A stretch of DNA of 64,000 nt from Paludibacteraceae bacterium (GCA_045591505.1 JAZNSW010000029.1:50368-114367); one strand, 5' to 3'; shown: positions 2,751-37,417, numbered from the stretch's first letter. Numbers and translations are program-made. The notes: a model not told the origin generated them from the letters alone.

Positions 2751-2891
2751 AATATTCTTTTTTTTTAGTTAAACTTATAAATTATTGTCTTATTTGTCTT
2801 TTTTCACAGTGGAACGCGCTCCTACTAAGTATCATAATTCGTTTATTATTAAATTGGACTTTATTTTTCATTTTTAAAACAATAGGCATAC

Positions 2892-2926
2892 AAAAAAACG
2901 TGGATTCCGACTGTTGTCGTTCCACG
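2892..2926 (-). terminator. intrinsic terminator ending the candidate ncRNA
   Basis: On the minus strand, CGTGGA..(ACGAC/GTCG inner stem)..TCCACG is followed by T7. Confidence 0.65.
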
Positions 2927-3228
2927 TTATGAGGCTCTCGCATTGCCCTTCCAATAAAACGACAACGCGAAGCCCACGCCGAATATAAACATTCTCCGTG
3001 CTATTTGAGTTAAGGTACGCGTGTGCGCATACGTATATGCACAAAAGACGTACCAAAACAGGCACAAGAGGGACAATCTATATCCCGTAGGACATCTATC
3101 GTTGCTAAGTTCTTATCAGGATTGAAGGTTGCGACATTTCAATACGTCAGAACAGAGCGCTAATAAACGCCTTTTAAATATGTCTGCTACCCCGCCGATG
3201 ACGTGCAGACATCCCCGGCGTGGAATTG
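2892..3228 (-). ncRNA. candidate ~340-nt non-coding RNA of unknown class
   Basis: It lies between a consensus promoter (3235-3265) and the terminator (2892-2926). GC is higher than in the neighbouring sequence. Only implausible ORFs are present. Several stems are visible, e.g. AUGUCUGC...GCAGACAU. Confidence 0.45.
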
Positions 3229-3234
3229 CGACTG

Positions 3235-3265
3235 CAAAGATAATACATTTTTTTGAATTGAGCAA
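3235..3265 (-). promoter_or_regulatory. Bacteroidetes-type promoter (TTG-N20-TATCTTTG)
   Basis: Plus-strand caaagata at 3235-3242 is TATCTTTG on the minus strand. A -33 TTG sits at 3263-3265. Confidence 0.55.
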
Positions 3266-3317
3266 GGAAATTTGTTTTTTTGGCGATTTTTTTGCTTAAA
3301 AACAGATAAGTAAACTA

Positions 3318-3496
3318 TTTCAGGAAAAGAGTCAACCTTTTTAGGAATCGAGTCAAGTGTTTTAGTCAAATCTTAATAAAAAGCCTTTTTTCAGTTTCGG
3401 CGTTCCTTGGTTCTTCCTTGGTTCTTCTTTGGTTCATCCTTGGTCTTTGACACGAGATTGATAAGGAAGGTACAAGAGATGGCAATCTTAATAAAA
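3318..3496. repeat. composite interspersed repeat (M1 box, 11-nt word array and conserved tail); inverted partner at 28819-29120
   Basis: Aligned by eye with the reverse complement of 29073-29120 (M1) and of 28819-28903 and 28931-29008 (word array plus tail ending aatcttaataa). Confidence 0.7.
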
Positions 3497-6725: not shown

Positions 6726-7796
6726 ATGGCTGGTATATATATACATATTCCATTTTGCAAGAGTCGCTGTAAATACTGCGACTTTTTCTCTACAACACTA
6801 TTAGACAAACAAGAGCAATATATTGACGCTCTACTCACCGAATGGCAAGACCGACAACACGAAATTGCCGAACCTATAGAGACAATATATATAGGCGGTG
6901 GAACACCGAGTGTGTTAGGCGAGGAGGCGATTAGGCGATTAGGCGAGGAGGTGATTGGGCGAGGAGTAGAGGTGACAATGGAAGCCAATCCTGGGGATAT
7001 AACGCAAGAAAAAGCAGAAGCATGGCGAGCAATGGGTATCAATCGCCTGAGTATTGGTGTGCAGAGTTTTGATGATACACTACTACAGTTAATTGGCAGG
7101 CGACATACCGCAGCAGAAGCAAAACAAGCAATAACCATAGCACAAGCTGCAGGATTTGACAACATATCTATTGACCTCATGTATGCCCTACCCTCACAAA
7201 CGTTGCAGCAATGGCAAAACGATGTGGCACAAGCCCTCCAAATGGGGGTACAACATATATCCACCTACGGACTTATCTACGAAGAAGGTACTCGCATAAC
7301 GCAACTATTACAAGAAGGCGAAATCGAAATGGTGGATGAAGAAATAGAAATGCAAATGTATGATTATTTGGTGGAGCAATTAACAGCGAATGGTTACGTT
7401 CACTATGAAGTAAGTAACTTCGCATTACCTGAATGCGAATCCAAACATAATTCCAGTTATTGGAATGGTACCCCCTACATAGGATTGGGAGCTGGAGCAC
7501 ATAGTTACAATGGCACACAGCGACAATGGAACATCAGCCATATTGACCGCTACATAGAACAAGCATTGTCACATAATCTTCAACCCGAAATAGAAATCCT
7601 ATCCGCAGAACAGAAGCATATGGAACAAGTCATGTTAGGATTACGAACGAACCACGGCGTTAATCAAACATTAGTTAATATGGTAGCAGCACAACCATAC
7701 ATTCAAAAAGGATTACTCACCCTATCCAACGGACATGTGATAGCCACTACTCAGGGCTTTCATATACTAAATCGGATAATAGAAGACATACTATAA
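6726..7796 (+). CDS. hemW: radical SAM heme chaperone HemW (HemN-like)
   Basis: IYIHIPFCKSRCKYCDF (Cx4CxxC), GGGTPS, MEANPG, NRLSIGVQSF. Confidence 0.9.
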   Translation: MAGIYIHIPFCKSRCKYCDFFSTTLLDKQEQYIDALLTEWQDRQHEIAEPIETIYIGGGTPSVLGEEAIRRLGEEVIGRGVEVTMEANPGDITQEKAEAWRAMGINRLSIGVQSFDDTLLQLIGRRHTAAEAKQAITIAQAAGFDNISIDLMYALPSQTLQQWQNDVAQALQMGVQHISTYGLIYEEGTRITQLLQEGEIEMVDEEIEMQMYDYLVEQLTANGYVHYEVSNFALPECESKHNSSYWNGTPYIGLGAGAHSYNGTQRQWNISHIDRYIEQALSHNLQPEIEILSAEQKHMEQVMLGLRTNHGVNQTLVNMVAAQPYIQKGLLTLSNGHVIATTQGFHILNRIIEDIL

Positions 7797-7843
7797 AGAA
7801 TATATTCCAAAAGAGAAATAATATACTATCAAAGAGACGAAGT

Positions 7844-10135
7844 ATGAATAACAAGCAAAACAAAAAAACAGACACCTCATCATTCAAGAAGAAATTTTTG
7901 GCATGGTTCTGGGGACTTTTATGCACAGGCATAGTGGCTATTGTGCTCGTATTTTGGATGATTACCAAAGGCTGGTTGGGGTATCTTCCTCCGTTAGACG
8001 AATTGCAAAACCCAAAAAACAAATATGCCACTGAGGTTATATCTGCAGATATGCAATTACTGGGTCGCTATTACCGCAATGAAAATCGCGTAGGTGTTAC
8101 CTACAACGAAATATCCCCCAATATGATTAACGCTTTGATAGCCACCGAAGATGTGCGCTATTACTCTCACACAGGCGTAGATCTCAAATCGCTGATGCGT
8201 GCTATTATCATGTTAGGTAAAGCAGGTGGCGGTAGTACTATCACCCAACAATTGGCTAAACAACTATGGTCACCACAAGCCAATAATATCTTTGAACGCG
8301 CTCTGCAAAAACCTATCGAATGGGTGATTGCTACAAAATTAGAGCGTTTGTACTCCAAAGAAGAGATTCTAACTATGTATCTCAACCAATTTGACTTCCT
8401 CTACAATGCAGTTGGTATCAAATCTGCAGCACAAGTATATTTTAGCACTACCCCAAGTGATTTGAAATTAGAAGAAGCAGCCATGTTGGTGGGTATGTGT
8501 AAGAATCCATCCTTATACAACCCCCGTCGTCGTCCCGAAAATGCACTCAACCGCCGAAATACCGTGCTCAACCAATTATGCAAATACGACTATATCACAG
8601 AGCAAATGTGCGATTCCCTTAAAGCACTTCCTATCGAACTCAAATACCAGTCTGTGGATCACAAGCAAGGTGCAGCACCCTATTTCCGCGAATATCTGCG
8701 ACAAATACTGACTGCCAAAGAGCCCAAACGTAGTCACTACTCCGAATGGAATCAATTGCAATATGAGATTGATAAACGACAATGGGAAGAAAATCCATTG
8801 TACGGATTTTGCTACAAAAATCATAAGCCCGATGGCACTCCTTATGATCTCTATCAAGATGGCTTGCGCATTTACACCACCATCGACTCACGTATGCAGC
8901 AATATGCCGAAGAAGCAGTAAGCGAACATATGCAAGCACTGCAAAAAACATTCTTCCGCGAGAAACGTAAAAAGAGTTATGCCCCATTCTCCGCAGACCT
9001 TGAGAAAGAAGATATTGATGCTATCATGAATCGCTCTATGCGGCAAACAGACCGCTACCGTGCTCTAAAAAAACAAGGTATGAGCGAAACGGATATTCGT
9101 AATGTGTTCAACACCCCTGTTGCAATGCGCGTCTTCTCCTACGATGGAATGATAGATACCACTATGAGTCCTATGGACTCTATCCGATGGAATAAACACT
9201 TCCTCCGTTGCGGGTTCATGTCGATGGAAACACATTCTGGCGCGGTGAAAGCCTATGTCGGAGGTCCAAACTTCACCCATTTTCAATACGACATGGTAAA
9301 TACAGGGCGACGACAAGTTGGCTCTACCATCAAGCCCTACCTCTTTACCCTTGCCATGGATGAAGGTATGTGGCCATGTGATAGCACTGTAAACGATTCT
9401 ATCACCCTCATTGATGGCAATGGTGTGGCATGGACACCACGCGATGAACACTTAGATAATCAGGGGGAAATGGTGACTCTGAACTGGGGTTTGGAAAAAT
9501 CTAGCAACTGGATAACCGCCTACCTCATGTCACTCTTTACTCCCGAACAATTGGTACAACTTATGCGTTCGTTTGGTATTGAAGGGCAATTGGACCCTGT
9601 TGTTAGTCTCTGCCTCGGACCATGCGAAGTGAGCGTAAAAGAAATGGTGGATGCCTATACTACCTTCCCTAATAAAGGTATTCGTGTGGAACCGCTGTAC
9701 GTGACACGTATCGAAGATAATAATGGCAATATTTTAGCAACATTCACGCCTAAAACCTATGAGATTATCAGCGAAACGACCTCCTACAAGATGATATACA
9801 TGCTGCGCAATGTGATGGATCATGGCACGGGTGTTCGTGCACGCTTCCGCTACGGGCTCAAAGGCCCAATGGGCGGAAAAACAGGTACCTCACAAAATCA
9901 CTCCGATGGTTGGTTTGTCGGCTTTACTCCATCCCTCGTTAGCGGCGTATGGGTAGGAGGCGAAGACCGCTCTATTCACTTCGATAATATGTCCGCAGGA
10001 CAAGGTGCCAACATGGCATTACCTATTTGGGCAATCTATATGCAAAAAGTACTCGCAGATGAAGAGTTAGGATATAATCCCGAAGAGCAGTTTGATGTAC
10101 CCGAATGGTTTGACCCTGAGGCAGGGTGCAAATAA
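7844..10135 (+). CDS. penicillin-binding protein 1A (GT51 transglycosylase plus transpeptidase)
   Basis: N-terminal TM helix, EDVRYYSHTGVD, GGSTITQQLAK, RRQVGSTIKP (SxxK), KTGTS. Confidence 0.92.
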   Translation: MNNKQNKKTDTSSFKKKFLAWFWGLLCTGIVAIVLVFWMITKGWLGYLPPLDELQNPKNKYATEVISADMQLLGRYYRNENRVGVTYNEISPNMINALIATEDVRYYSHTGVDLKSLMRAIIMLGKAGGGSTITQQLAKQLWSPQANNIFERALQKPIEWVIATKLERLYSKEEILTMYLNQFDFLYNAVGIKSAAQVYFSTTPSDLKLEEAAMLVGMCKNPSLYNPRRRPENALNRRNTVLNQLCKYDYITEQMCDSLKALPIELKYQSVDHKQGAAPYFREYLRQILTAKEPKRSHYSEWNQLQYEIDKRQWEENPLYGFCYKNHKPDGTPYDLYQDGLRIYTTIDSRMQQYAEEAVSEHMQALQKTFFREKRKKSYAPFSADLEKEDIDAIMNRSMRQTDRYRALKKQGMSETDIRNVFNTPVAMRVFSYDGMIDTTMSPMDSIRWNKHFLRCGFMSMETHSGAVKAYVGGPNFTHFQYDMVNTGRRQVGSTIKPYLFTLAMDEGMWPCDSTVNDSITLIDGNGVAWTPRDEHLDNQGEMVTLNWGLEKSSNWITAYLMSLFTPEQLVQLMRSFGIEGQLDPVVSLCLGPCEVSVKEMVDAYTTFPNKGIRVEPLYVTRIEDNNGNILATFTPKTYEIISETTSYKMIYMLRNVMDHGTGVRARFRYGLKGPMGGKTGTSQNHSDGWFVGFTPSLVSGVWVGGEDRSIHFDNMSAGQGANMALPIWAIYMQKVLADEELGYNPEEQFDVPEWFDPEAGCK

Positions 10136-27822: not shown

Positions 27823-28824
27823 ATGAACAAATTCCGCCCCATCCGCGCTTATCATACTGGTTGGCTTTTGCCATTCATTGATTTTCTTATCCTCTACCCT
27901 ATCCTTTTGGTCATGCGTCGTAAGACCACCAAGGGTATCCAACTGCAATATCATGGCGACAGAAAGCAGATTGAGCAAGATATCCGCCATGGTGCTTTCT
28001 TTATGACCAACCACCGCGACATTATCATGGATGCCACTTGGCTCACTTTCCTGTTGCGTGTCCGCTATTTTATCCATCCCTATTTTGGTATTGGCAACAA
28101 CCTGTTCGGCAAATGGTGGATTGAGTTCGTAGTGCGTTTCCTGCGTGGTTTTGTAGTTATCCGCAATGGTGGTTTCCGTGAACAAGTCAGCAACGCCACT
28201 ACTCTCTCGCAGTATATCCGCCACTTACGCAAACACCACAAATCCATCTGGTTAGCGCAACGCGAGGGGCGTGCTAAAGATGGCAATGATATCACCCAAC
28301 CGGGTGTGTTGAAGATGCTCACGATTGATGCCGAAGACTTCTTCGAGAGCGTAAAGGAGCTTAATATCTGCCCTGTCAGTATCTCCTATGAGTTCGATCC
28401 TTGCGACTACCTCAAAGCTCGCGAGATGCAACTCAAACGCGATAATCCCAAGTGGCGCAAGTCCCGTAAGGATGATTTGGTTTCCATGAAAGTGGGTATT
28501 GATGGTCAGAAAGGACGTATTGTCTATCGTTTGACACCATCTATCAATCACGATATTGACCGTGCTCTTGCTGCGCAACCCGAGTTGCGCGAACTGAGCC
28601 GTAACGAGCAGATTCAGTTTGTATGCCAAATCATTGACCAGCATATCCATGCGGCGTATGAGATCTACCCACGCGGCAAAGAGTTTGACGAGTATATTGA
28701 TAGCCGCTTGCAACTCATCCACCTCTCCAATAAGGACACGGACTTCCTCCGCGCCCGCCTCTATGAGATGTACAACTACCCTGTACTAAACTACGAAAAA
28801 GCAGTAAAAAAGTACGATTATTAA
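27823..28824 (+). CDS. lysophospholipid/glycerol acyltransferase family protein
   Basis: NHRDIIMD (the HX4D acyltransferase motif). ATG 27823 preferred over GTG 27790. Confidence 0.75.
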   Translation: MNKFRPIRAYHTGWLLPFIDFLILYPILLVMRRKTTKGIQLQYHGDRKQIEQDIRHGAFFMTNHRDIIMDATWLTFLLRVRYFIHPYFGIGNNLFGKWWIEFVVRFLRGFVVIRNGGFREQVSNATTLSQYIRHLRKHHKSIWLAQREGRAKDGNDITQPGVLKMLTIDAEDFFESVKELNICPVSISYEFDPCDYLKAREMQLKRDNPKWRKSRKDDLVSMKVGIDGQKGRIVYRLTPSINHDIDRALAAQPELRELSRNEQIQFVCQIIDQHIHAAYEIYPRGKEFDEYIDSRLQLIHLSNKDTDFLRARLYEMYNYPVLNYEKAVKKYDY

Positions 28825-29120
28825 GATTTCATTCCCTTGTACCTTCCCTATCTCTCTCGTGTTAATAACCAAGAACGAACCAAAGACGAACCTAGGATGA
28901 ACCTACCAACTCTCAAACTCAAAAAAGTACTTTTATTAAGATTGCCATCCTTTTTCCCTCTCTTATACCTTCCCCTATTTCACCGACCGACGACCGACCG
29001 ACGACCGAGAGAACTCCGACTCAACTCCTCGCTTACAAAAATGCTTTTTGTTATGCTTTTTGTTAATATAACCTAAAATACTTGACTCGATTCCTAAAAA
29101 GATTGACTGCTATCCTGAAA
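28819..29120. repeat. composite interspersed repeat, inverted partner of 3318-3496 (two word-array/tail units plus M1 box)
   Basis: Unit 1 at 28819-28903, unit 2 at 28931-29008 (word ccgaccgacgaccg), M1 at 29073-29120. Unit 1 overlaps the stop codon of the acyltransferase gene. Confidence 0.7.
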
Positions 29121-29207
29121 AGATTACCTGATAATTATGCACTTCACACTCATTTTTGAGTGCGCTATCTTAAAAATCTCTCACTTCCGTTACAAAATAA
29201 AAAAATA

Positions 29208-29239
29208 TTTGCATATTTCAAAAAAAATAAGTATTTTTG
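29208..29239 (+). promoter_or_regulatory. promoter of the J-domain cassette (TTTG-N20-TATTTTTG)
   Basis: tttg at 29208-29211 and tatttttg at 29232-29239, about 40 nt upstream of ATG 29279. Confidence 0.55.
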
Positions 29240-29278
29240 CGGTCACATATGAAATTTAGAATAAACTTATAAACAATT

Positions 29279-29674
29279 ATGGCTTTTTGGAATAGAATAG
29301 TAAACTGGTTTAGAGATTTATCAGAACGAGATAGATTGATAAACGATTTTAATGCATCTGCAAGGGGCGCTTTTACACAATTATCTGTTGGAACATTGTT
29401 AGAGGCCAGGTCAAAAAGTGGTTGTAAAGAGTTTAGACATGAATGTTCTAGTTTCTTTTTACCAACAGGTTTCTGCATTAAAGCCACTAAAGGAATTCCT
29501 TTGACTAGAGATGAAATCTTGTACATTGGAACTGTTATCCTTACAAATGAGGCTTTAGTTAGAAGACTATTTGTGCTAGGGTGGGACACCCTATATGTAG
29601 AGGACATTGTAGGAAATAAACAAGCTAAGTGGTCAATAAAAGAGTTTACTAACATAGGTTTAATGCTTCGATAA
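29279..29674 (+). CDS. hypothetical protein (131 aa), first gene of the cassette
   Basis: ORF track. AT-rich. Its stop is 1 nt before the next ATG. Confidence 0.6.
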   Translation: MAFWNRIVNWFRDLSERDRLINDFNASARGAFTQLSVGTLLEARSKSGCKEFRHECSSFFLPTGFCIKATKGIPLTRDEILYIGTVILTNEALVRRLFVLGWDTLYVEDIVGNKQAKWSIKEFTNIGLMLR

Positions 29675-29675
29675 A

Positions 29676-29969
29676 ATGAGCAAGATAGGAAGATTTTTTA
29701 GAGGTTTATTTAAAACCTCTGAAACAGACAAGTTAAGAGATAAAATACTAAATGAAGAAATAGATTTTGGAAATGTTGTGTCAAGTTCATTACTCGCTAA
29801 GAACCTATATGATGAATTAAAGAAAATTTGCCACCCAGACAGATTCCTTAACGAGCAAGACATAAACAAAGCTAATGAGTTATTTCAGTTAGTAACGCAA
29901 AATAAAGGAGATTATAACAAACTCCTATCCCTAAAAGAACAAATATATAAAGAATTACCTATTAACTAA
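29676..29969 (+). CDS. stand-alone J-domain-like protein (97 aa, HPD motif)
   Basis: ...NLYDELKKICHPDRFLNEQDINKANELFQLVTQN... HPD at residues 53-55 (29832-29840), between segments resembling J-domain helices II and III. Confidence 0.6.
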   Translation: MSKIGRFFRGLFKTSETDKLRDKILNEEIDFGNVVSSSLLAKNLYDELKKICHPDRFLNEQDINKANELFQLVTQNKGDYNKLLSLKEQIYKELPIN

Positions 29970-29986
29970 AAAATATTGATAATTAT

Positions 29987-30790
29987 ATGGGCGACAATAA
30001 AGTTTCTGAAAAAGCCATCTGGGAAGGTTCTATTCCATCAGACGATGGGAATACTCAATTTTCTCCATTCCCGCAATCTCAACCGCAAATGATGTTTTGC
30101 TATAAATGCAAAAATGTCATCCCTGCTAATTCCAAATATTGTCCATTTTGTCAAATCGAATTATATACAAAATGTCCGAAGTGTGGAGCAAAATACTCGT
30201 CGCAATATCCTGCTTGTAATCAGTGCGGAACAAATAGATTAGAGTACTTAAAGGCACAGAAAATAGAGCAAGAACGAGTTGAAGCAAGAAAACGAGAAGA
30301 AGCTGAAAGACAAGAGAAGGAAAAGTACGAGCGCAAAAAAGAGCAGATAATGAATACTCAGGAGTATCAATCTACATATTCTATTTTGGAAGAAGCTTTA
30401 GAAAGTTTTGGAAGAAAAGATATAATAAAATGTATAATGAAGATTGTTTTATTATTAAGCACTTTTTTGGTATCTTGTTGGTTGATATATGATGATTCGT
30501 GGATAGATTCCCTAAATGAAGGAATAGTTGTAGTAATAATTTTTTTATGGGCTTTGCTACAAATAGGTCTCATTGTTGGAATTGTACTATCAATCGGTCA
30601 ATTAGGCGATATAGAAACACGGGAACAATATATTTGGCGGTATATCGGCAAAAAGGAATATGATTATAATAAAGATATGCTTGAATTTGTAGTGAAGCAA
30701 TTTAGAGATTCCTCATTATCTACATCCGACATACTGGAAAAATTGTCACGATGGTGCGTTGATGCTTATGAGGAAAAAAGAAAAAAATAG
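29987..30790 (+). CDS. double zinc-ribbon, coiled-coil, transmembrane protein (267 aa)
   Basis: CxxC pairs at C38/41, C52/55, C63/66 and C77/80. A KE-rich stretch EQERVEARKREEAERQEKEKYERKKE. Two to three hydrophobic helices (residues ~150-205). Confidence 0.65.
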   Translation: MGDNKVSEKAIWEGSIPSDDGNTQFSPFPQSQPQMMFCYKCKNVIPANSKYCPFCQIELYTKCPKCGAKYSSQYPACNQCGTNRLEYLKAQKIEQERVEARKREEAERQEKEKYERKKEQIMNTQEYQSTYSILEEALESFGRKDIIKCIMKIVLLLSTFLVSCWLIYDDSWIDSLNEGIVVVIIFLWALLQIGLIVGIVLSIGQLGDIETREQYIWRYIGKKEYDYNKDMLEFVVKQFRDSSLSTSDILEKLSRWCVDAYEEKRKK

Positions 30791-30857
30791 ATATATCTCA
30801 CGCCTCATATAAAAAACGCAACTCTTCAGAAATGAGATAGCAAATTTTAACACGACT

Positions 30858-31334
30858 ATGGATAAGAAGGAATTATGGCATGAAATGCTAACCACATATT
30901 GCAGTAGAATGCATTATACAGGATTAACATTGCCTAATATGATAGGTGCATATTATTACTATTGTAAGTTCAATTATGAAGACTATGATTTATCATCAAG
31001 TAATTGTGTCTTTCGGGTGTTATATGACATATCAAATAGTCTAAAAGACATGGGAGTGCTAATCAGGTATTGTGGACACATTAGGAAATATGTTTTATCT
31101 CCCCTCGAAGATAAGAATATGCAACATCCTAAACTTAATGATAGAATCTTTTTACAAATGTACGATTCGCAACTAAAAACAAATTCTTCTAGTATAGAAA
31201 ATCTTGCAGAATATTTATATTCGCTTCATCAAAACGAAATTAAAGAAAAGAAATTCTCGCTTAAAAACGGCATTTGGCAACCTCTATCTAATATTGAACG
31301 TGAATACATTAACAACATTATACATTCCCTTTAG
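30858..31334 (+). CDS. hypothetical protein (158 aa)
   Basis: ORF track. A possible winged-helix-like segment (DMGVLIRYCGHIRKYVLSP), weakly supported. Confidence 0.5.
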   Translation: MDKKELWHEMLTTYCSRMHYTGLTLPNMIGAYYYYCKFNYEDYDLSSSNCVFRVLYDISNSLKDMGVLIRYCGHIRKYVLSPLEDKNMQHPKLNDRIFLQMYDSQLKTNSSSIENLAEYLYSLHQNEIKEKKFSLKNGIWQPLSNIEREYINNIIHSL

Positions 31335-31411
31335 TAACCATGACAACTTTCAATAGAATGATTAATGTTGCTGTCGAAAAAGTTGACACTTAAGATATGC
31401 AAAAACAAAAA

Positions 31412-31443
31412 TTTGCACATATAGAAAAAAAGCAGTACCTTTG
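31412..31443 (+). promoter_or_regulatory. promoter (TTTG-N20-TACCTTTG) of the 227-aa membrane protein gene
   Basis: tttg at 31412-31415 and tacctttg at 31436-31443. Confidence 0.55.
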
Positions 31444-31482
31444 CAATGAATTTTAATAATTAAACATAAACTAATTATAACT

Positions 31483-32166
31483 ATGAAACTTTCTCTTAAA
31501 ACTTCATCCCTTTTCGCCGCAATAGCAATATCCATCTACTGTGTATATACAATATTAGATGGAGCAATGAACACCCCCCGATATCATCATGTATTTACCA
31601 GCTTATACATAGACAAGTTTTTAACATTCCAATATAATAGGATGATTTGGGTCACACTGATGCTTGTCGCTATTGCTCTATTAGGTGTGGCATTATTCAT
31701 TCATCGCAAACATATACCACAACTATCCAAATCTTTACTTTGGCAGGCGAGGATTATTACTACGATACTTTCTCTATATATCATTTACAACATTGCACGC
31801 CAAACCATTGGATCATCTTTTGAATCATTAACACATCTTGAGTATTCCTTGTATGTCACTGATTGCGTTGAGAGTACAATGATGTATAATGGTGGTCTTA
31901 TGGTGTGGATTTCTATATGGTTGTGGCAATTCGCTTTTCTAAAGCCAACAAATACCTTTGAGACCAACCGTTTAGGCATTAGTGGCATTTTAATCGCAAT
32001 AGGCGTAGGCATCATTTTATTATTGATGTTCATCTCTTTTGTACATGTCATGACAACTGATCGTGTAATTGGTTTCAGCATAAATATATTTATCGGTTGG
32101 TTTAAACCTCTATCTGCTCTAGCATTATTGAGTGTATATTTATTAGAACAACGCAAGACCCACTAG
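31483..32166 (+). CDS. hypothetical ~6-helix membrane protein (227 aa)
   Basis: ORF track. Repeated hydrophobic helices. Confidence 0.6.
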   Translation: MKLSLKTSSLFAAIAISIYCVYTILDGAMNTPRYHHVFTSLYIDKFLTFQYNRMIWVTLMLVAIALLGVALFIHRKHIPQLSKSLLWQARIITTILSLYIIYNIARQTIGSSFESLTHLEYSLYVTDCVESTMMYNGGLMVWISIWLWQFAFLKPTNTFETNRLGISGILIAIGVGIILLLMFISFVHVMTTDRVIGFSINIFIGWFKPLSALALLSVYLLEQRKTH

Positions 32167-32303
32167 GGCAAAGTTCAAAAAAACACTACAAGCAGGAGGT
32201 AAATAATGAGCATTTTCGAAGTGTGACAATTTGTCACCAACTGATCTTTTTTACAAAAGTAAAAAATCGTGATACGATATCCTAATTAGAGTATTATTAA
32301 ACT

Positions 32304-32664
32304 ATCTTCGGCACACGAAAACTTTTTTCAAAAAAAATACACCCACGCGGGAAGTCCAGTAAACACTGCACTTCCCGCGTGTTGTATATACCATTTTACC
32401 CTCCAAATTCTCCAATCTTCGGCGCAAAAACCTTTCCACACCGAAGATTCAGCACCCCTATAGTATATAGATGCGTAAGGAAAACGGAAAGGTGAAAACG
32501 GAAAACTAAAAGCCACAAATAGGGCACATTTAGGCAACAGATATGCTACAGTGGTCGCGAATTGGTCGCCAAGCCCGCAGTCAACTCGAGAGTGACCTGA
32601 AAGCCACCGAAAGCCCATAGATGTCCCAGAGATCTCCTATGGTGGTCGCCTAATTTGCAGGGAA
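32304..32664. repeat. structured intergenic repeat, copy 1 (conserved ends, variable centre)
   Basis: Alignable to 34007-34382 over the first ~165 nt and the last ~55 nt. Hairpin at 32346-32379 preceded by A8. Confidence 0.8.
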
Positions 32665-32742
32665 TTTTTTGCACAAAAGCAACAAAACGCACCAAAAAAT
32701 GTGCAAATATCAAATAAAATGCACCAAAAAAAGTGCATTCTC

Positions 32743-32773
32743 TTGCATGAATAAGATTTTTTAGTTATCTTTG
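32743..32773 (+). promoter_or_regulatory. promoter (TTG-N20-TATCTTTG) of the AAA ATPase gene
   Basis: ttg at 32743-32745 and tatctttg at 32766-32773. Confidence 0.5.
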
Positions 32774-32811
32774 CAGCGAATTTTGAATACGCAATACAAA
32801 ACAAACATACT

Positions 32812-33987
32812 ATGAAAGCTCTGCAAGAAGAAATGAAACGCCAGTTGAAGCACCTTAATCCTAAGATGATTCGACGTTACATGCACGACGTAATTGATTG
32901 GGACGCACGCCTAATAAGTATCCTTGGTGCTCGAGGAGTGGGAAAAACAACACTTCTACTTCAGCATATAAAAGAAACTAATGACATCGAACATTCGTTG
33001 TTTGTGTTTGCTGATAACATCTATTTTGCGACACACCGCCTATTTGACTTGGCAAATACATTTGTACAATATGGAGGTAAGTACTTGTATATAGATGAAA
33101 TTCATAAATACGCTAATTGGTCCACCGAAATTAAAAACATCTATGATAGTTTCCCTTCATTGAAAGTAGTATATACTGGTTCCTCTATCTTGGACTTAGA
33201 AAAAGGTGGTGCCGATCTGTCACGTCGAAAACTGCAATATCATATGCAAGGACTTAGTCTGCGTGAGTTTGTGGAACTGAAATATGGATATAAAATTCGG
33301 CAACATTCGCTACAGGAACTGATAGATGGAAAAATAGACTGGCCTTACGATGCACTGAAACCATTACCCGTGATGGCTGAGTATTTGCAATATGGGTATT
33401 ATCCATATTTTACAGATGGACATTTCCACGAGCATCTTCATAGTTCGCTATTGCAAACACTCGAGGTTGATATTCCCACTTTTGCACAGATGAATGTCGG
33501 AACAACCCGAAAACTCAAAACATTGCTCGGTATTATTGCAGCTAGTGTACCATTCAAACCTAATATGCAAGCCATTGCGCGGGATTTGGGAATAAGTCGT
33601 AATGATATTTCTGACCTGCTATTCTATCTCGAAAAAGCAGGAGTAATTATGCAACTCCGCCAAACTACTGAAGGTATAGCCCTTTTGGGTAAAGTGGAAA
33701 AAGTATATCTCAACAACACGAATTTAATGTACCTTTTAGCATCTGAAAACATTGAGATAGGCAACGTGCGCGAAACCTTCTTCCTTTCAGCCACCAATAT
33801 GACAGAACGTGTTTTTGCCTCAACAATTAGCGATTTCCAAATAGGCGAATATACATTTGAAGTTGGAGGTAAAAAGAAAGGGAAAAAGCAACTTGCAGAA
33901 GCAAAATATGGCATTGTTGTTCGTGATGATATTGAATATGCATCGCCTGCGGTTATACCACTCTTTGCCTTTGGGTTATTGTACTAA
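32812..33987 (+). CDS. AAA+ ATPase of the COG1373 type (AAA_14 plus DUF4143-like C-terminus)
   Basis: Walker A GARGVGKTT and Walker B LYIDEIHKY. Size and C-terminal region are typical of this family, as far as I recall. Confidence 0.8.
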   Translation: MKALQEEMKRQLKHLNPKMIRRYMHDVIDWDARLISILGARGVGKTTLLLQHIKETNDIEHSLFVFADNIYFATHRLFDLANTFVQYGGKYLYIDEIHKYANWSTEIKNIYDSFPSLKVVYTGSSILDLEKGGADLSRRKLQYHMQGLSLREFVELKYGYKIRQHSLQELIDGKIDWPYDALKPLPVMAEYLQYGYYPYFTDGHFHEHLHSSLLQTLEVDIPTFAQMNVGTTRKLKTLLGIIAASVPFKPNMQAIARDLGISRNDISDLLFYLEKAGVIMQLRQTTEGIALLGKVEKVYLNNTNLMYLLASENIEIGNVRETFFLSATNMTERVFASTISDFQIGEYTFEVGGKKKGKKQLAEAKYGIVVRDDIEYASPAVIPLFAFGLLY

Positions 33988-34006
33988 TGTAGGATTTCTT
34001 ACATAA

Positions 34007-34382
34007 CCTTCGGCACAATCTTCGCGCGAAGAAACTTTTTTCAAAAAAAATACACCCACGCGGAAGCTCTTGTAATACAGATGCTTCCGCGTGTTGTATA
34101 TACCATTTTACTCTCCAAATTCTCAAACCTTCGGCACAAAACCCCTTCCGTGCCGAAGATACGGCATTACTATATATAATAGAGAGATTCCTTGAGCGCC
34201 CAAGGGAGTTGATTCGGGCGCAATGTTGTTGATTTGATGTTGTTGAAGTTGTTGATATTGTCGTCTGACAACAAACAAGCGGCAGAAGTAGCGACATTAT
34301 TATAGAGACGCATCAAAAAAGCCATAGAAAGCCCATAGATGTCCCAGAGATATCCTATCATGGTCGCCTAATATGCAAGGAA
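34007..34382. repeat. structured intergenic repeat, copy 2
   Basis: See copy 1. It starts 20 nt after the ATPase stop codon. Confidence 0.8.
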
Positions 34383-34459
34383 CTCGTGGCAATTTCAATG
34401 CAACTGACCGCTTATATATAACTTTTTGCAAGAAAAACAATAAAAAGTTTCATATTTTC

Positions 34460-34490
34460 TTTGATAAATCAATTATTTATTGTACCTTTG
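34460..34490 (+). promoter_or_regulatory. promoter (TTTG-N19-TACCTTTG) of abiEi
   Basis: tttg at 34460-34463 and tacctttg at 34483-34490. Confidence 0.55.
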
Positions 34491-34511
34491 CGGAGAATTT
34501 GAAACCAACTA

Positions 34512-35270
34512 ATGAATCTATTATCCTTTCTACATAGTAAATTATTGTTTACATTACAAGATGTATCCCTAGAAACTGGCAACACACGTAGTGCACAAAC
34601 TTTGCTTATGCGCTATCAAAAGCAAGGGTATGTGTCCAAAGTGCGACGTGGGCTATACTGCGTGAATAACATTGCTACCCATCTGCCTGAAGCAAACAAA
34701 TTTCAAGTAGCATCTGCCATTACGCCAACCTCCTATATCGCTTATCATGCAGCCATGGAGTACCACGGATTGGCACATCAAGTATATTACGATGTGGCAG
34801 TTGGAGGCGAACAAGCATTTAATGCCTTTGAGTTTGATGGGATTCACTTTGCCTTCCGTCAAATCCCTACGCATATAGGTATTGACACGCCTATTGCTGA
34901 TTCGCATGTGCGCGTGACGAATGTAGAGCGCACAGTGATTGATTGCATTGATCGTATTGACCTATGCGGTGGTTGGGAAGAACTGACCAATTGCCTCAAA
35001 AGCGTGCAATATCTTCGCGAGGAAATGCTACTAACCATCTTACAAACCTATAATAAGATTGCATTATATAAGAAGGTGGGCTTCTTGTTTGAACAGCTAC
35101 ATCTGCCAGTTTCCAGCAACTTGATAGATACTTGTAAACAATATGCCAAAGAGAGTGTCACTTATCTCACATCAGATGGCGATAGCGATACCTTCAGTGC
35201 AGCATGGCGACTATATGCACCTAAAAATCTACTAACCATCAATCAACAAAACACAGATGAACTCGTATAA
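34512..35270 (+). CDS. abiEi: type IV toxin-antitoxin AbiEi-family antitoxin/transcriptional regulator
   Basis: An N-terminal wHTH-like region ...YQKQGYVSKVRRGLYCV... and a C-terminal AbiEi-like domain. 14-nt overlap with the downstream nucleotidyltransferase gene. Confidence 0.75.
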   Translation: MNLLSFLHSKLLFTLQDVSLETGNTRSAQTLLMRYQKQGYVSKVRRGLYCVNNIATHLPEANKFQVASAITPTSYIAYHAAMEYHGLAHQVYYDVAVGGEQAFNAFEFDGIHFAFRQIPTHIGIDTPIADSHVRVTNVERTVIDCIDRIDLCGGWEELTNCLKSVQYLREEMLLTILQTYNKIALYKKVGFLFEQLHLPVSSNLIDTCKQYAKESVTYLTSDGDSDTFSAAWRLYAPKNLLTINQQNTDELV

Positions 35271-36201
35271 CAAAAACGACATAGCCCAATTGGCAAGCGA
35301 AACACATTTCTTGCGCGATAACTTGGAAAAGGTGCTGCGCCTGGTGGATGTGCTACAATTCATTATGCAGAATGACAAACTGAATGATTGTTTGGTATTG
35401 AAGGGAGGAACAGCGATAAACTTGACTGTTTTTGAAATGCCCCGTTTGTCTGTGGACATTGATTTAGACTTTCACAAGGATTGCTCACGCGAGGAAATGC
35501 TACAATATCGTGCCGCTATCAATGCCGAGATAGTGGCATATATGACAAGCCAAAGGTATAATCTCAGTCCAAACACCAAGAATCCTCACTCGCTGGATTC
35601 GTGGGTATTCTTCTATCAAAACGCAGGTGGCAATCGGGATAACATCAAAATAGAAATCAACTATTCTATGCGGCAGCATGTCTTCCTTCCGCAGACACGC
35701 GCAGTCAATGTGGTTTTTCTGCAAAACATACCTATCAGGACCCTTCATCCGATAGAACTCTTTGGCAGTAAAATCAAAGCATTGATAGAGCGACACACCT
35801 GTCGTGATTTGTATGATGTCTATAATCTACTACATAGTGAGGTGATTAAGGATTTTGACCTTGCTATACTACGTAAGGTAGTACTGTTTTATTTAGCGGT
35901 AGGTGGTAGTGAACAACCAAGTACACAGTATGACTTGAGCGGCATAAAGCAAATCAAATTTCCACAAATTCGTGCCACCTTACTGCCTATGCTTAAGAAA
36001 GGCGATACATTTGATTTTGAGACTGCTAAAACGGAGGTGGTGGCATTCTTGGAGAAATTGTTGCAATGGACAGATAGTGAGATTGCATTTATCGAATCCT
36101 TTGTTGCAAAACAATACAAGCCCAAATTATTATTCTCTGATGCAGAAATAATCCATAATATTTGCAATCATCCAATGGCACATTGGAAAGTAAGAGAATA
36201 A
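35257..36201 (+). CDS. abiEii: AbiEii/AbiGii-family nucleotidyltransferase toxin (DUF1814)
   Basis: ...LVLKGGTAINL...PRLSVDIDLDF..., the nucleotidyltransferase signature of this family. Confidence 0.8.
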   Translation: MNSYNKNDIAQLASETHFLRDNLEKVLRLVDVLQFIMQNDKLNDCLVLKGGTAINLTVFEMPRLSVDIDLDFHKDCSREEMLQYRAAINAEIVAYMTSQRYNLSPNTKNPHSLDSWVFFYQNAGGNRDNIKIEINYSMRQHVFLPQTRAVNVVFLQNIPIRTLHPIELFGSKIKALIERHTCRDLYDVYNLLHSEVIKDFDLAILRKVVLFYLAVGGSEQPSTQYDLSGIKQIKFPQIRATLLPMLKKGDTFDFETAKTEVVAFLEKLLQWTDSEIAFIESFVAKQYKPKLLFSDAEIIHNICNHPMAHWKVRE

Positions 36202-36252
36202 TATAAACTTTCAGCAAGCCCACACACGCCCCACACCATTCTACACAAAATA

Positions 36253-36284
36253 TTTGCAAATATGCAATATTTTTAGTACCTTTG
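36253..36284 (+). promoter_or_regulatory. prfB promoter (TTTG-N20-TACCTTTG)
   Basis: tttg at 36253-36256 and tacctttg at 36277-36284. Confidence 0.55.
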
Positions 36285-36310
36285 CGCCCAAATTGGCAAA
36301 TTAGAAACTT

Positions 36311-37417
36311 ATGATAACTATAGAACAACTTAAAGAGATTCAACAACGCGCGGAGAAACTCAAACAATACCTCGCGATTGATGAAAAACGTGTGCAACTC
36401 GAAGAAGAAGAACTGCGCACACAAGACCCTGGTTTTTGGGAAGATGCCAAAGCTGCTGAAGTGCAAATGCGCAAAGTAAAAGGCATCAAAGCATGGATTG
36501 AGGGCTATGAAGGTGTACGCTCCGCTACCGAAGAACTGCAACTCGCGTTCGACTATTGCAAAGAAGAACTCGTCACCGAAGAAGAGGTAGATGCCGCATA
36601 CGCTCACGCTCTCCATGAGGTAGAAGCCCTCGAAATGAAGAATATGCTATCTCACGAAGAGGACCAAATGCCAGCGGTACTAAAAATCGTGTCGGGTGCA
36701 GGTGGTACCGAAGCACAAGACTGGGCAGAACAACTCATGCGCCTCTACCAACGCTACTGCGAGAAGCACGATTATAAGGTAACCATTGCCAACCTGCAAG
36801 AAGGCGACGAAGCTGGTATTAAGACAGTTACCTTCAATATCGAAGGCGATATGGCATACGGCTACCTCAAATCCGAGAATGGTGTGCACCGCCTCGTTCG
36901 CGTGAGTCCATACAACGCGCAAGGCAAACGTATGACCTCGTTCGCATCGGTGTTTGTGGTGCCACTCATCGACGATACCATCGATATTCACGTGGATCCT
37001 GCAGGTATCTCGTGGGATACATTCCGTTCATCGGGTGCAGGTGGACAGAACGTCAACAAAGTAGAATCGGGTGTGCGCTTGCACTATAAGTTCATCAACC
37101 CACTCACCAACCAACCCGACGAGATTGTGATTGAGAACACCGAGACACGCGACCAACCAAAGAACCGCGAGAATGCCCTCCGCCACTTGCGCAGTCAACT
37201 CTACGAACTCGAACTCGAGAAACGCCGCCAAGCTGCAGCGAAAGTAGAAGCAGGCAAGAAAAAAATCGAATGGGGCAGCCAAATTCGCAGTTACGTCTTC
37301 GATGACCGCCGCGTAAAAGACCACCGCACCAACTACCAAACAAGCAACGTGAACGCCGTAATGGACGGCGATATTGATGAGTTCATCAAGGCATATTTGA
37401 TGGAGTTTCCAGATTAA
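36311..37417 (+). CDS. prfB: peptide chain release factor 2, uninterrupted ORF
   Basis: SGAGGTEAQDWA, HRLVRVSPY (the SPF-type motif), SGAGGQNVNKVES (GGQ). Confidence 0.92.
   Translation: MITIEQLKEIQQRAEKLKQYLAIDEKRVQLEEEELRTQDPGFWEDAKAAEVQMRKVKGIKAWIEGYEGVRSATEELQLAFDYCKEELVTEEEVDAAYAHALHEVEALEMKNMLSHEEDQMPAVLKIVSGAGGTEAQDWAEQLMRLYQRYCEKHDYKVTIANLQEGDEAGIKTVTFNIEGDMAYGYLKSENGVHRLVRVSPYNAQGKRMTSFASVFVVPLIDDTIDIHVDPAGISWDTFRSSGAGGQNVNKVESGVRLHYKFINPLTNQPDEIVIENTETRDQPKNRENALRHLRSQLYELELEKRRQAAAKVEAGKKKIEWGSQIRSYVFDDRRVKDHRTNYQTSNVNAVMDGDIDEFIKAYLMEFPD

Follow-up and report, generated by a model that had tools for sequence, protein, structure and literature searches.

J-domain proteins set where, and on what, Hsp70 acts. 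To our knowledge, almost nothing is known about the specialised J-domain proteins of Bacteroidota, a dominant gut phylum. Here we analyse positions 29208–32166 of a 64,000-nucleotide stretch of DNA from a Paludibacteraceae bacterium (GCA_045591505.1, JAZNSW010000029.1:50368-114367; the whole stretch is referred to as the window), where five open reading frames (ORF1–ORF5) include a candidate stand-alone J-domain protein, ORF2, and a zinc-ribbon membrane protein, ORF3. By analogy, the closest functional counterparts of this locus appear to be DjlA and the Pam18/Pam16(/Zim17) set. In the mitochondrial import motor, Pam18/Tim14 combines a transmembrane (TM) segment with a J-domain, Pam16/Tim16 is a J-like protein without the His-Pro-Asp (HPD) motif, and Zim17/Tim15 is a zinc-ribbon escort of Hsp70 (PMC9695410). 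A stand-alone J-domain protein, Rki, is encoded by gene 057w of the T4-like phage RB43 and acts through host DnaK on sigma-32 (PMC3486835), and host DnaJ takes part in phage sensing by bNACHT25 (PMC12169576). Low-GC, co-directional cassettes with repeated integron-like intergenic sequences have been described in Bacteroidales as rAID-1 arrays (Ross et al., bioRxiv 10.1101/471110).

Judged by gene order, the conserved core of the locus is the ORF1–ORF2 pair, which is spread through Bacteroidota. This revises a preliminary description made from the window sequence, in which the unit was built on a minimal J-domain plus a zinc ribbon; in most relatives the J protein has a TM helix of its own. ORF1, ORF2 and ORF3 could well form one operon encoding a membrane-directed module for recruitment of DnaK (Hsp70), carried as mobile accessory cargo, a reading that we consider to be about evenly poised. 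A description of such a J-domain/zinc-ribbon membrane module was not found in the literature.

The ORF1–ORF2 pair and the J-domain of ORF2

The five genes lie on the plus strand: ORF1 at 29279–29674 (131 amino acids, aa), ORF2 at 29676–29969 (97 aa), ORF3 at 29987–30790 (267 aa), ORF4 at 30858–31334 (158 aa), and ORF5 at 31483–32166 (227 aa). Only 1 nucleotide (nt) separates ORF1 from ORF2 and 17 nt separate ORF2 from ORF3. The GC content of 29208–32166 is 0.326, against 0.436 in both flanks and 0.41 in the whole window; individual ORFs range from 0.30 to 0.36, and the profile, 0.45–0.54 immediately upstream, runs at 0.29–0.37 over 29000–32500 and at 0.46–0.51 past prfB. A Bacteroidota-type promoter, TTTG-N20-TATTTTTG, is located upstream of ORF1 on the plus strand (29208–29239) and is kept in the alignment of relatives. 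It serves ORF1, ORF2, and ORF3, and probably ORF4 as well. The pattern TTTG-N17-23-TAnnTTTG is over-represented in the window (15 matches versus 3.5 expected, a count reached in 0 of 100 shuffles), with sites directly upstream of ORF1, ORF5 (31412–31443), AbiEi (34460–34490), and prfB (36253–36284). Scans of the window for E. coli-type sigma-70 promoters and intrinsic terminators stayed at chance level, as expected for Bacteroidota. The genes, gaps, low GC content, and ORF1 promoter of the preliminary description were all recovered. Pairwise comparison with homologous loci revealed purifying selection on all four genes examined, with ratios of nonsynonymous to synonymous substitution (dN/dS) of 0–0.04 for ORF1, 0.02–0.13 for ORF2, 0.10–0.13 for the N-terminal part of ORF3, and ∼0.2 for ORF4; these low ratios indicate that ORF1–ORF4 are real genes under constraint.

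The pairing of ORF1 with ORF2 is evident from 80 metagenome loci fetched by ORF1 alone, in which genes are crude longest-ORF calls and many of which are short, partly redundant contigs. Where a fetched locus leaves downstream room, an HPD-bearing ORF2 homologue lies directly 3' of ORF1 with about six exceptions, often overlapping it, and the same order holds in nearly all of the ∼100 loci examined. The gene orders fall into four classes. Class A, the type found in the window, consists of ORF1, a soluble J protein (97–108 aa), and one or two proteins with a double zinc ribbon (DZR), a charged linker, and two TM helices. Class B has a lipoprotein, ORF1, a TM-anchored J protein (134–147 aa; N-terminal TM helix), and two small TM proteins. 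In class C, ORF1 and then J are preceded by a protein that combines two tandem J-like domains lacking HPD with a coiled coil and a TM anchor at its C-terminus; such upstream genes lie at 667–1299 in locus L024, 6162–7052 in L051, 178–948 in L059, and 6367–6972 in L077, among others. In class D, ORF1 and J are followed by other proteins, which start with a zinc ribbon and also have TM segments. Judging from predicted TM segments, a membrane anchor is always supplied, in every lineage, by the TM helix of J, by the HPD-less J-like protein, or by the zinc-ribbon protein.

ORF1 is the most conserved gene of the module and is 89–100% identical across class A loci. The exact protein occurs in 68 blocks of the sequence collection, and the identical protein sits behind at least eight different upstream genes. 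A profile search gathered 1,349 ORF1 clusters at 90% identity, in Bacteroidota; the 120 clusters listed are all 129–136 aa long, none has a Pfam domain, and those with names are annotated as hypothetical. The named clusters belong to Bacteroidales, Flavobacteriales, Sphingobacteriia, and Saprospiraceae, and some members are on multi-Mb chromosomes. An AlphaFold2 (AF2) model of ORF1 (predicted local distance difference test, pLDDT, 78; predicted TM-score, pTM, 0.71) begins with a long N-terminal helix (residues 2–34), followed by a β-hairpin, a pair of helices, and another hairpin. Residues that do not vary are concentrated in this first helix (W4, W10, F11, D13, R17, L20, N25, A28) and around G101-D103-T104-L105. 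Among Foldseek matches of ORF1, the PD-(D/E)xK-like folds of Rai1/DXO, Cas4, YqaJ, and RecB recur in both libraries (E>0.01, TM-score<0.4). The candidate catalytic residues E108, D109, and K114 are His, Gly, or Tyr in class B homologues, and the nuclease reading was rejected.

The predicted J core of ORF2 covers residues ∼31–93 (nt 29766–29954, plus strand), a minimal and divergent form. The HPD codons, His53-Pro54-Asp55, lie at 29832–29840 on the same strand, where they had originally been placed, and are kept across homologues. A hydrophobicity scan of ORF2 found no hydrophobic segment, hence no TM helix or DjlA-type N-terminal anchor. ORF2 has 217 close homologues of ∼100 aa each, and an exhaustive HMMER search extended its relatives to 416 representatives at 50% identity, the majority of them 130–147 aa long, beginning with a TM helix and ending with the HPD domain. 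All three HPD residues are invariant in an alignment of 76 diverse relatives that are 32–64% identical to ORF2, and the motif was found in 118/120 and 145/150 ORF2 homologues.

Comparison of the 76-member alignment with 12 canonical J-domains by hhalign gave a probability of 92.4% (E 5.3e-7, 43 columns), with HPD, the Tyr and Leu of helix II, and the Ala and Phe of helix III in register; 12/12 reference sequences match Pfam DnaJ (best 1.5e-31). Sub-threshold matches to Pfam DnaJ were obtained for 37 of the 76 family members (best 2.9e-4). A broad profile of the ORF2 family, built from the exhaustive search and the source of the J-domain signal in PDB, retrieved J-domain proteins in 26 of 28 matches (best E 0.016), including DnaJ, Sec63, auxilin, and HscB, with HPD aligned. 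The AF2 model of ORF2 (pLDDT 71) has helices at residues 31–51, 60–75, and 80–93 with HPD in the 52–59 loop; this order of helices fits a J-domain, helix I being of low confidence. The His of HPD is lost in 34/34 of the paralogous J-like domains of class C, which have [DNA]P[SAEKN] instead, indicating that the HPD of ORF2 is specifically maintained. On the strength of these profile comparisons, ORF2 is a divergent yet genuine J-domain lying beneath the thresholds of current family models; its membership of the superfamily is supported at the profile level and not by curated thresholds.

In one 130-aa entry of the representative library, P0250, an ORF1 homologue appears to be fused in frame, through its C-terminal part, to a J-domain. 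The fusion may be a Rosetta-stone hint of physical association or an artefact of assembly or gene calling.

ORF3 and the optional companions

ORF3 is built from a double zinc ribbon (30098–30229), a charged helical linker (30242–30430), two TM segments (30431–30487 and ∼30503–30586), and a 62-aa tail, all on the plus strand. Its four CxxC pairs start at residues 38, 52, 63, and 77, and Pfam DZR (PF12773) matches residues 38–81 with 29.7 bits against a cut-off of 27.3. Lys, Arg, Glu, and Asp make up 49% of the linker (residues 86–148), and two hydrophobic spans (∼149–167 and 173–200) were read as TM helices. The initial assignment of ORF3 as a double-zinc-ribbon membrane protein with a charged segment is confirmed by these features. 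Four CxxC pairs with 14/11/14 spacing are present in 31/31 distinct DZR homologues, in which the linker is 68–121 aa long and 41–58% charged and most members have two TM helices and a 65–88-aa tail. One form, seen as two closely similar variants, has neither TM helices nor a charged linker.

The membrane half of ORF3 varies between loci. Its C-terminal (TM plus tail) halves are of at least ten types, and tandem paralogues are common. Loci share DNA identity over the leader, ORF1, ORF2, and ∼100 codons at the start of ORF3; it is lost at ∼30240–30300 and regained at 30793, at ORF4. In the same locus pairs, synonymous divergence (dS) rises from 0.01–0.18 in ORF1 and ORF2 to 0.8–1.1 in the N-terminal part of ORF3. 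L017 has two DZR paralogues, the second of which matches the ORF3–ORF4 segment of the window at 97% identity; the arrangement in the window thus seems to have arisen through recombination that removed the first one. The exact ORF3 protein had no entry on look-up, whereas exact ORF1 was found. Comparison of loci thus defines ORF3 as an exchangeable partner, with a membrane half that appears to have been swapped between them. The order of ORF1, ORF2, and a DZR protein recurs in many different neighbourhoods, in agreement with co-occurrence of ORF1–ORF3 in other genomes.

The five-gene cassette proposed at first held for its first three members, which form a conserved operon in many genomes; synteny rejected the five ORFs as a single unit. 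Homologues of ORF4 are found in six other loci only (L012, L013, and L015–L018; 82–96% identity), which are the closest relatives of the window locus. Homologues of ORF5, ∼40% identical, follow ORF4 in two of them only, L015 and L017. ORF5 had been described as a membrane protein of about six helices with its own promoter. The membrane protein and a plus-strand promoter of the same Bacteroidota type, identified by pattern match, were both recovered, but four strong hydrophobic segments were counted, with a few more possibly under the threshold used. From this pattern of synteny, ORF4 is an optional companion of the module and ORF5 an optional, separately transcribed neighbour. ORF1, ORF4, and ORF5 gave zero matches in Pfam, NCBIfam, PHROGs, and PADLOC.

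Genomic setting and possible role

In the mechanism that we propose, ORF3 would be anchored in the inner membrane via its two helices, with the zinc ribbon, the charged helical linker, and the C-terminal tail on the cytoplasmic side. The HPD loop of ORF2 would dock on DnaK and trigger ATP hydrolysis, upon which DnaK would clamp whatever is held adjacent. ORF2 has no client-binding domain, and specificity would therefore come from its partners. ORF1, an invariant and translationally coupled partner, might be an adaptor or a client whose state DnaK switches, and ORF3 would be an exchangeable platform, here standing in for the TM helix carried by the J protein of most relatives. DnaK binding, the topology, and an ORF1–ORF2–ORF3 complex are what we infer from these features. 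The likeliest output of the module, gated by DnaK, would be some conflict function of advantage to the island that carries it; incoming phage or mobile DNA might be excluded or fought off, for example, or attack on the membrane withstood. A conflict role of this kind is conceivable but doubtful. It is favoured for class A because of the location in islands and hotspots, the swapping of partners, and the patchy distribution. A defence or toxin–antitoxin role is possible, as is, from context, a role in DnaK-recruiting abortive infection.

The module occupies a hotspot of variable cargo at 28825–36310. Contigs with an identical PrfB carry entirely different cargo upstream, and the interval is therefore considered to be strain-variable. 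L110 is near-empty; L109 has leucine-rich repeat proteins, DUF1810, and AbiE; L113 has a type I restriction–modification (RM) system and two AAA_14 genes; L112 has DUF1848 and a UvrD-like helicase; and another contig has proteins of 553 and 678 aa together with DUF4249. In the window, an acyltransferase-like gene and a serine dehydratase subunit lie upstream of ORF1, and prfB (36311–37417) forms the downstream edge. The island contains three cassettes with a ∼500-nt repeat between them. The two neighbouring cassettes, both on the plus strand and outside the module, are an AAA_14/DUF4143 ATPase (32812–33987; PADLOC PDC-S01, 3e-27) and the pair AbiEi (34512–35270; PADLOC 2.8e-82) and AbiEii (35257–36201; PADLOC 2.1e-110), which match the COG1373-type ATPase and AbiE pair previously noted there. 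A 97% identical copy of the AAA_14 gene is present in another array, in L113, and in L109 the same AbiE pair precedes prfB with no J module.

Both copies of the repeat, R, are on the plus strand, direct, and 81–89% identical. Copy 1 (32294–32790) precedes AAA_14 and contains the hairpin CACGCGGGAAGT...ACTTCCCGCGTG; copy 2 (33996–34501) precedes AbiE and holds the AbiEi promoter in its 3' end. A ∼150-nt core of R with the hairpin also forms the right end of the cassettes of L013 and L015, and the near-empty L110 has a single copy of it. The arrangement of R looks integron- or rAID-like. A non-coding leader (28808–29278, plus strand) travels with the cassette and lies upstream of ORF1 in L012, L013, L015, and L018 behind different upstream genes. 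Its 5' part (28808–29125) is a dispersed intergenic repeat, containing AAAAAAGTAC..TTATTAAGATT twice and runs of CCGACCGACGACCGA, with a second copy on the minus strand at 2885–3494. A structured RNA in the 470-nt leader was considered and rejected, there being no Rfam match. In L013 and L015 the leader has an additional ∼190-nt insertion at a TTAAG.

Related modules elsewhere are also associated with mobile DNA. Immediately before their class A modules, L021 (3–494), L022 (943–1530), L036 (592–1179), and L037 (1–378) encode a ∼195-aa stand-alone tyrosine-recombinase catalytic domain (Pfam Phage_integrase, 3e-20). L022 reads RadC, small integrase, ORF1-J-DZR, then tRNA-Leu. In Parabacteroides distasonis, a record filed as a 278-kb plasmid has an integrase, HTH_17, and other genes followed by the module beside tRNA-Phe, and the L119 island has an integrase and an IS110 transposase. 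In L116, a small integrase-bearing island, the integrase is followed by a class B module and nucleotidyltransferase genes. Two of these (7521–9323), directly downstream of the module, encode Adenyl_transf proteins, one also with LinB-like_C; nucleotidyltransferases of the Adenyl_transf/LinB-like type can confer lincosamide or aminoglycoside resistance. A prophage origin was rejected: the PHROG search of the window proteins gave no match, the ORF1/ORF2 family has none in 50,697 phage records, and relatives of the module occur on 3 of 2.9 million viral contigs.

The neighbours of class A elsewhere include type IIG RM, MADS components, PDC-S02, TIR_2, HepT/MNT, AbiGi, and SocA_Panacea, in scans that are family counts without a background rate, so that 'defence context' is qualitative. 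The defence-type neighbourhood of the preliminary description therefore stands for this strain-variable hotspot, which holds defence genes, but not for the family outside class A, where neighbours are mostly ordinary.

Several observations weigh against the module being a DnaK-recruiting conflict system. ORF2 has no match to Pfam DnaJ (PF00226) at E<=1, its single NCBIfam match is a weak one to HscB (0.023), and a narrow profile of its close homologues retrieves no J-domain from PDB. The top Foldseek match of the ORF2 model is a J-domain, 2qsa, but is weak and not significant (E 2.2, TM-score 0.32). The J-domain signature first read from ORF2 thus stands for the family, through hhalign, the PDB profile, and the invariant HPD, and not for ORF2 taken alone; its modelling likewise places helices on both sides of the HPD loop without a significant structural match. 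ORF1 has no significant sequence or fold match and no recognisable fold or catalytic motif. No significant match to PADLOC-DB v2 was obtained for ORF1–ORF5, and a known defence system was rejected on this ground; the weak partial matches were ORF2 to PDC-S26 (0.0045) and the ORF3 zinc ribbon to REase_II (4e-4). That no known defence or toxin–antitoxin family lies behind the module agrees with the first impression, none having matched in Pfam, NCBIfam, or PADLOC. An integrase is found within 6 kb upstream in 9 of the 41 loci with room for one. The neighbours of classes B–D are mostly metabolic, transport, or housekeeping genes with few candidate-defence matches, and the core may for this reason not be a conflict system at all.

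These ordinary contexts keep alive the alternative that fares best, a proteostasis or envelope role of housekeeping type, which we nevertheless regard as unlikely. ORF1/J would then be a DjlA- or Pam18-like co-chaperone that brings DnaK to the membrane without any conflict role, its presence in an island being incidental; DnaK would act there in the folding, insertion, or assembly of the membrane proteins encoded with the pair (ORF3 here; s63 and s68 in relatives) or in signalling envelope stress. The breadth of the ∼1,350 ORF1 clusters across the four taxa named above, in part on multi-Mb chromosomes, would fit such a role, as would the largely metabolic and transport neighbours outside class A and the presence of Sec63 among the PDB matches of the ORF2 family profile. 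The membrane J proteins DjlA, Pam18, and Sec63 bring Hsp70 to the membrane. Class A, however, is patchy, being found in 4 of 185,579 species representatives (Bacteroidaceae, Rikenellaceae, Alloprevotella, Alistipes), and identical ORF1 is seen at numerous insertion sites. The swapping of partners and the tandem paralogues seen here would be unusual in housekeeping genes, and low GC content, placement in defence hotspots, and integrase/tRNA islands likewise argue against it.

An improbable alternative is that the module is rAID-like cargo for interbacterial immunity, in which the variable membrane proteins would neutralise membrane-targeting toxins of competitors. The array at 28825–36310 is co-directional and mostly at or below 41% GC with repeated spacers, the small tyrosine recombinase adjoins ORF1 in the four class A loci named above, and the variable tandem paralogues resemble immunity arrays. 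Against this, there is no recombinase anywhere in the window, where tblastn found no counterpart of the small recombinase of the relatives; the remaining cassettes, AbiE and AAA_14, are of phage-defence or toxin–antitoxin types rather than immunity genes; and the module has no immunity-family homology in Pfam or NCBIfam and a J-domain without an obvious role in immunity.

More improbable still is a toxin–antitoxin module of the toxin–antitoxin–chaperone (TAC) type, in which one of ORF1 and ORF3 would be the toxin and the other a labile antitoxin, kept stable by DnaK that ORF2 recruits. Such a module would suit a compact three-gene operon on mobile DNA that adjoins the toxin–antitoxin pair AbiE, and a 2-TM protein could serve as a membrane toxin. 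In TAC systems such as the M. tuberculosis HigBA-SecB-like one, however, the third gene is the chaperone itself and not a co-chaperone. Pfam, NCBIfam, and PADLOC gave no toxin, antitoxin, ChAD-like, or SecB-like match; ORF1 hardly varies (dN/dS <0.04), its conservation far exceeding that of the rest of the module; and some loci lack ORF3, have two copies of it, or carry unrelated membrane proteins in its place. The TAC-like hypothesis of the preliminary description accordingly found no specific support. It is scarcely credible that a helical protein contains HPD merely by chance and that the genes adjoin one another without being related: the failure of ORF2 against Pfam DnaJ and the insignificant structural match of its model would allow it, whereas the invariance of HPD in 76 diverse members, the synteny in ∼100 loci, the profile-profile and PDB profile evidence for a J-domain, and the strong purifying selection all oppose it.

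The membrane-directed DnaK recruitment module may be extended into a broader and distinctly doubtful proposal, that the ORF1/J pair is the engine of a new class of Hsp70-dependent conflict systems widespread in Bacteroidota. The J/J-like set, island-borne and tethered to the membrane, would be a bacterial analogue of Pam18/Pam16, host DnaK as a switch or sensor would activate ORF1 or ORF3 against phage, conjugative DNA, or membrane toxins, and the swapped ORF3 halves would set specificity.

Comparison with known systems

The analysis defines a large two-gene family that is annotated as hypothetical throughout and for which HPD and DnaK offer a testable biochemical handle. Class A would be its gut-specific mobile variant, with a membrane partner swapped like a specificity module inside defence hotspots.

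With rAID-1 arrays the locus shares at least two co-directional genes, GC content at or below 41%, and repetitive spacers: eight plus-strand genes lie at 29279–36201, with GC of 0.29–0.43 and two copies of repeat R. The window lacks the 5' XerD-like recombinase by which such arrays are defined, on which ground membership was rejected, and the cargo is AbiE and AAA_14 rather than immunity genes. Like TAC modules, ORF1–ORF3 are three genes on mobile DNA with a chaperone-related component, whereas the SecB-like chaperone and HigB/HigA-type partners of TAC were not found here in Pfam, NCBIfam, or PADLOC. Rki resembles ORF2 as a minimal J-domain on mobile DNA, and ORF2 would likewise act through DnaK. 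Rki is, however, encoded by a phage and stands alone, whereas the ORF2 family is essentially absent from phages and is paired with ORF1. If the role of the module turns out to be defence or exclusion, this would be the first such system with a dedicated co-chaperone as its basis, and it would tie in with phage sensing through DnaJ (PMC12169576).

DjlA, a membrane-anchored E. coli J protein of type III, is like the ORF2 family a small J protein without a client-binding domain, and ORF2 would, as we read it, also act at the inner membrane. The DjlA layout, with an N-terminal TM helix and a C-terminal J-domain, is common to the class B relatives. Differences are that the ORF2 family lacks the TerB-like central domain and is shorter (97–147 aa), that ORF2 of the window has no TM helix, and that the obligate ORF1 and the zinc-ribbon partner have no counterpart in DjlA; the family is confined to Bacteroidota, and its similarity to DjlA to the J-domain.

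The component list of the mitochondrial import motor parallels the TM-anchored J, the HPD-less J-like protein of class C, and the zinc-ribbon protein found here, as an analogy only. Homology does not extend beyond the J-domain, neither a translocon nor an equivalent of ORF1 is shared, and ORF3 is a Pfam DZR membrane protein and not a soluble DNL-type zinc finger like Zim17. Class C is nevertheless reminiscent, as a bacterial J/J-like pairing, of Pam18/Pam16, and should the module serve membrane proteostasis, bacteria would have in it a counterpart to the J/J-like pair of the mitochondrial motor.

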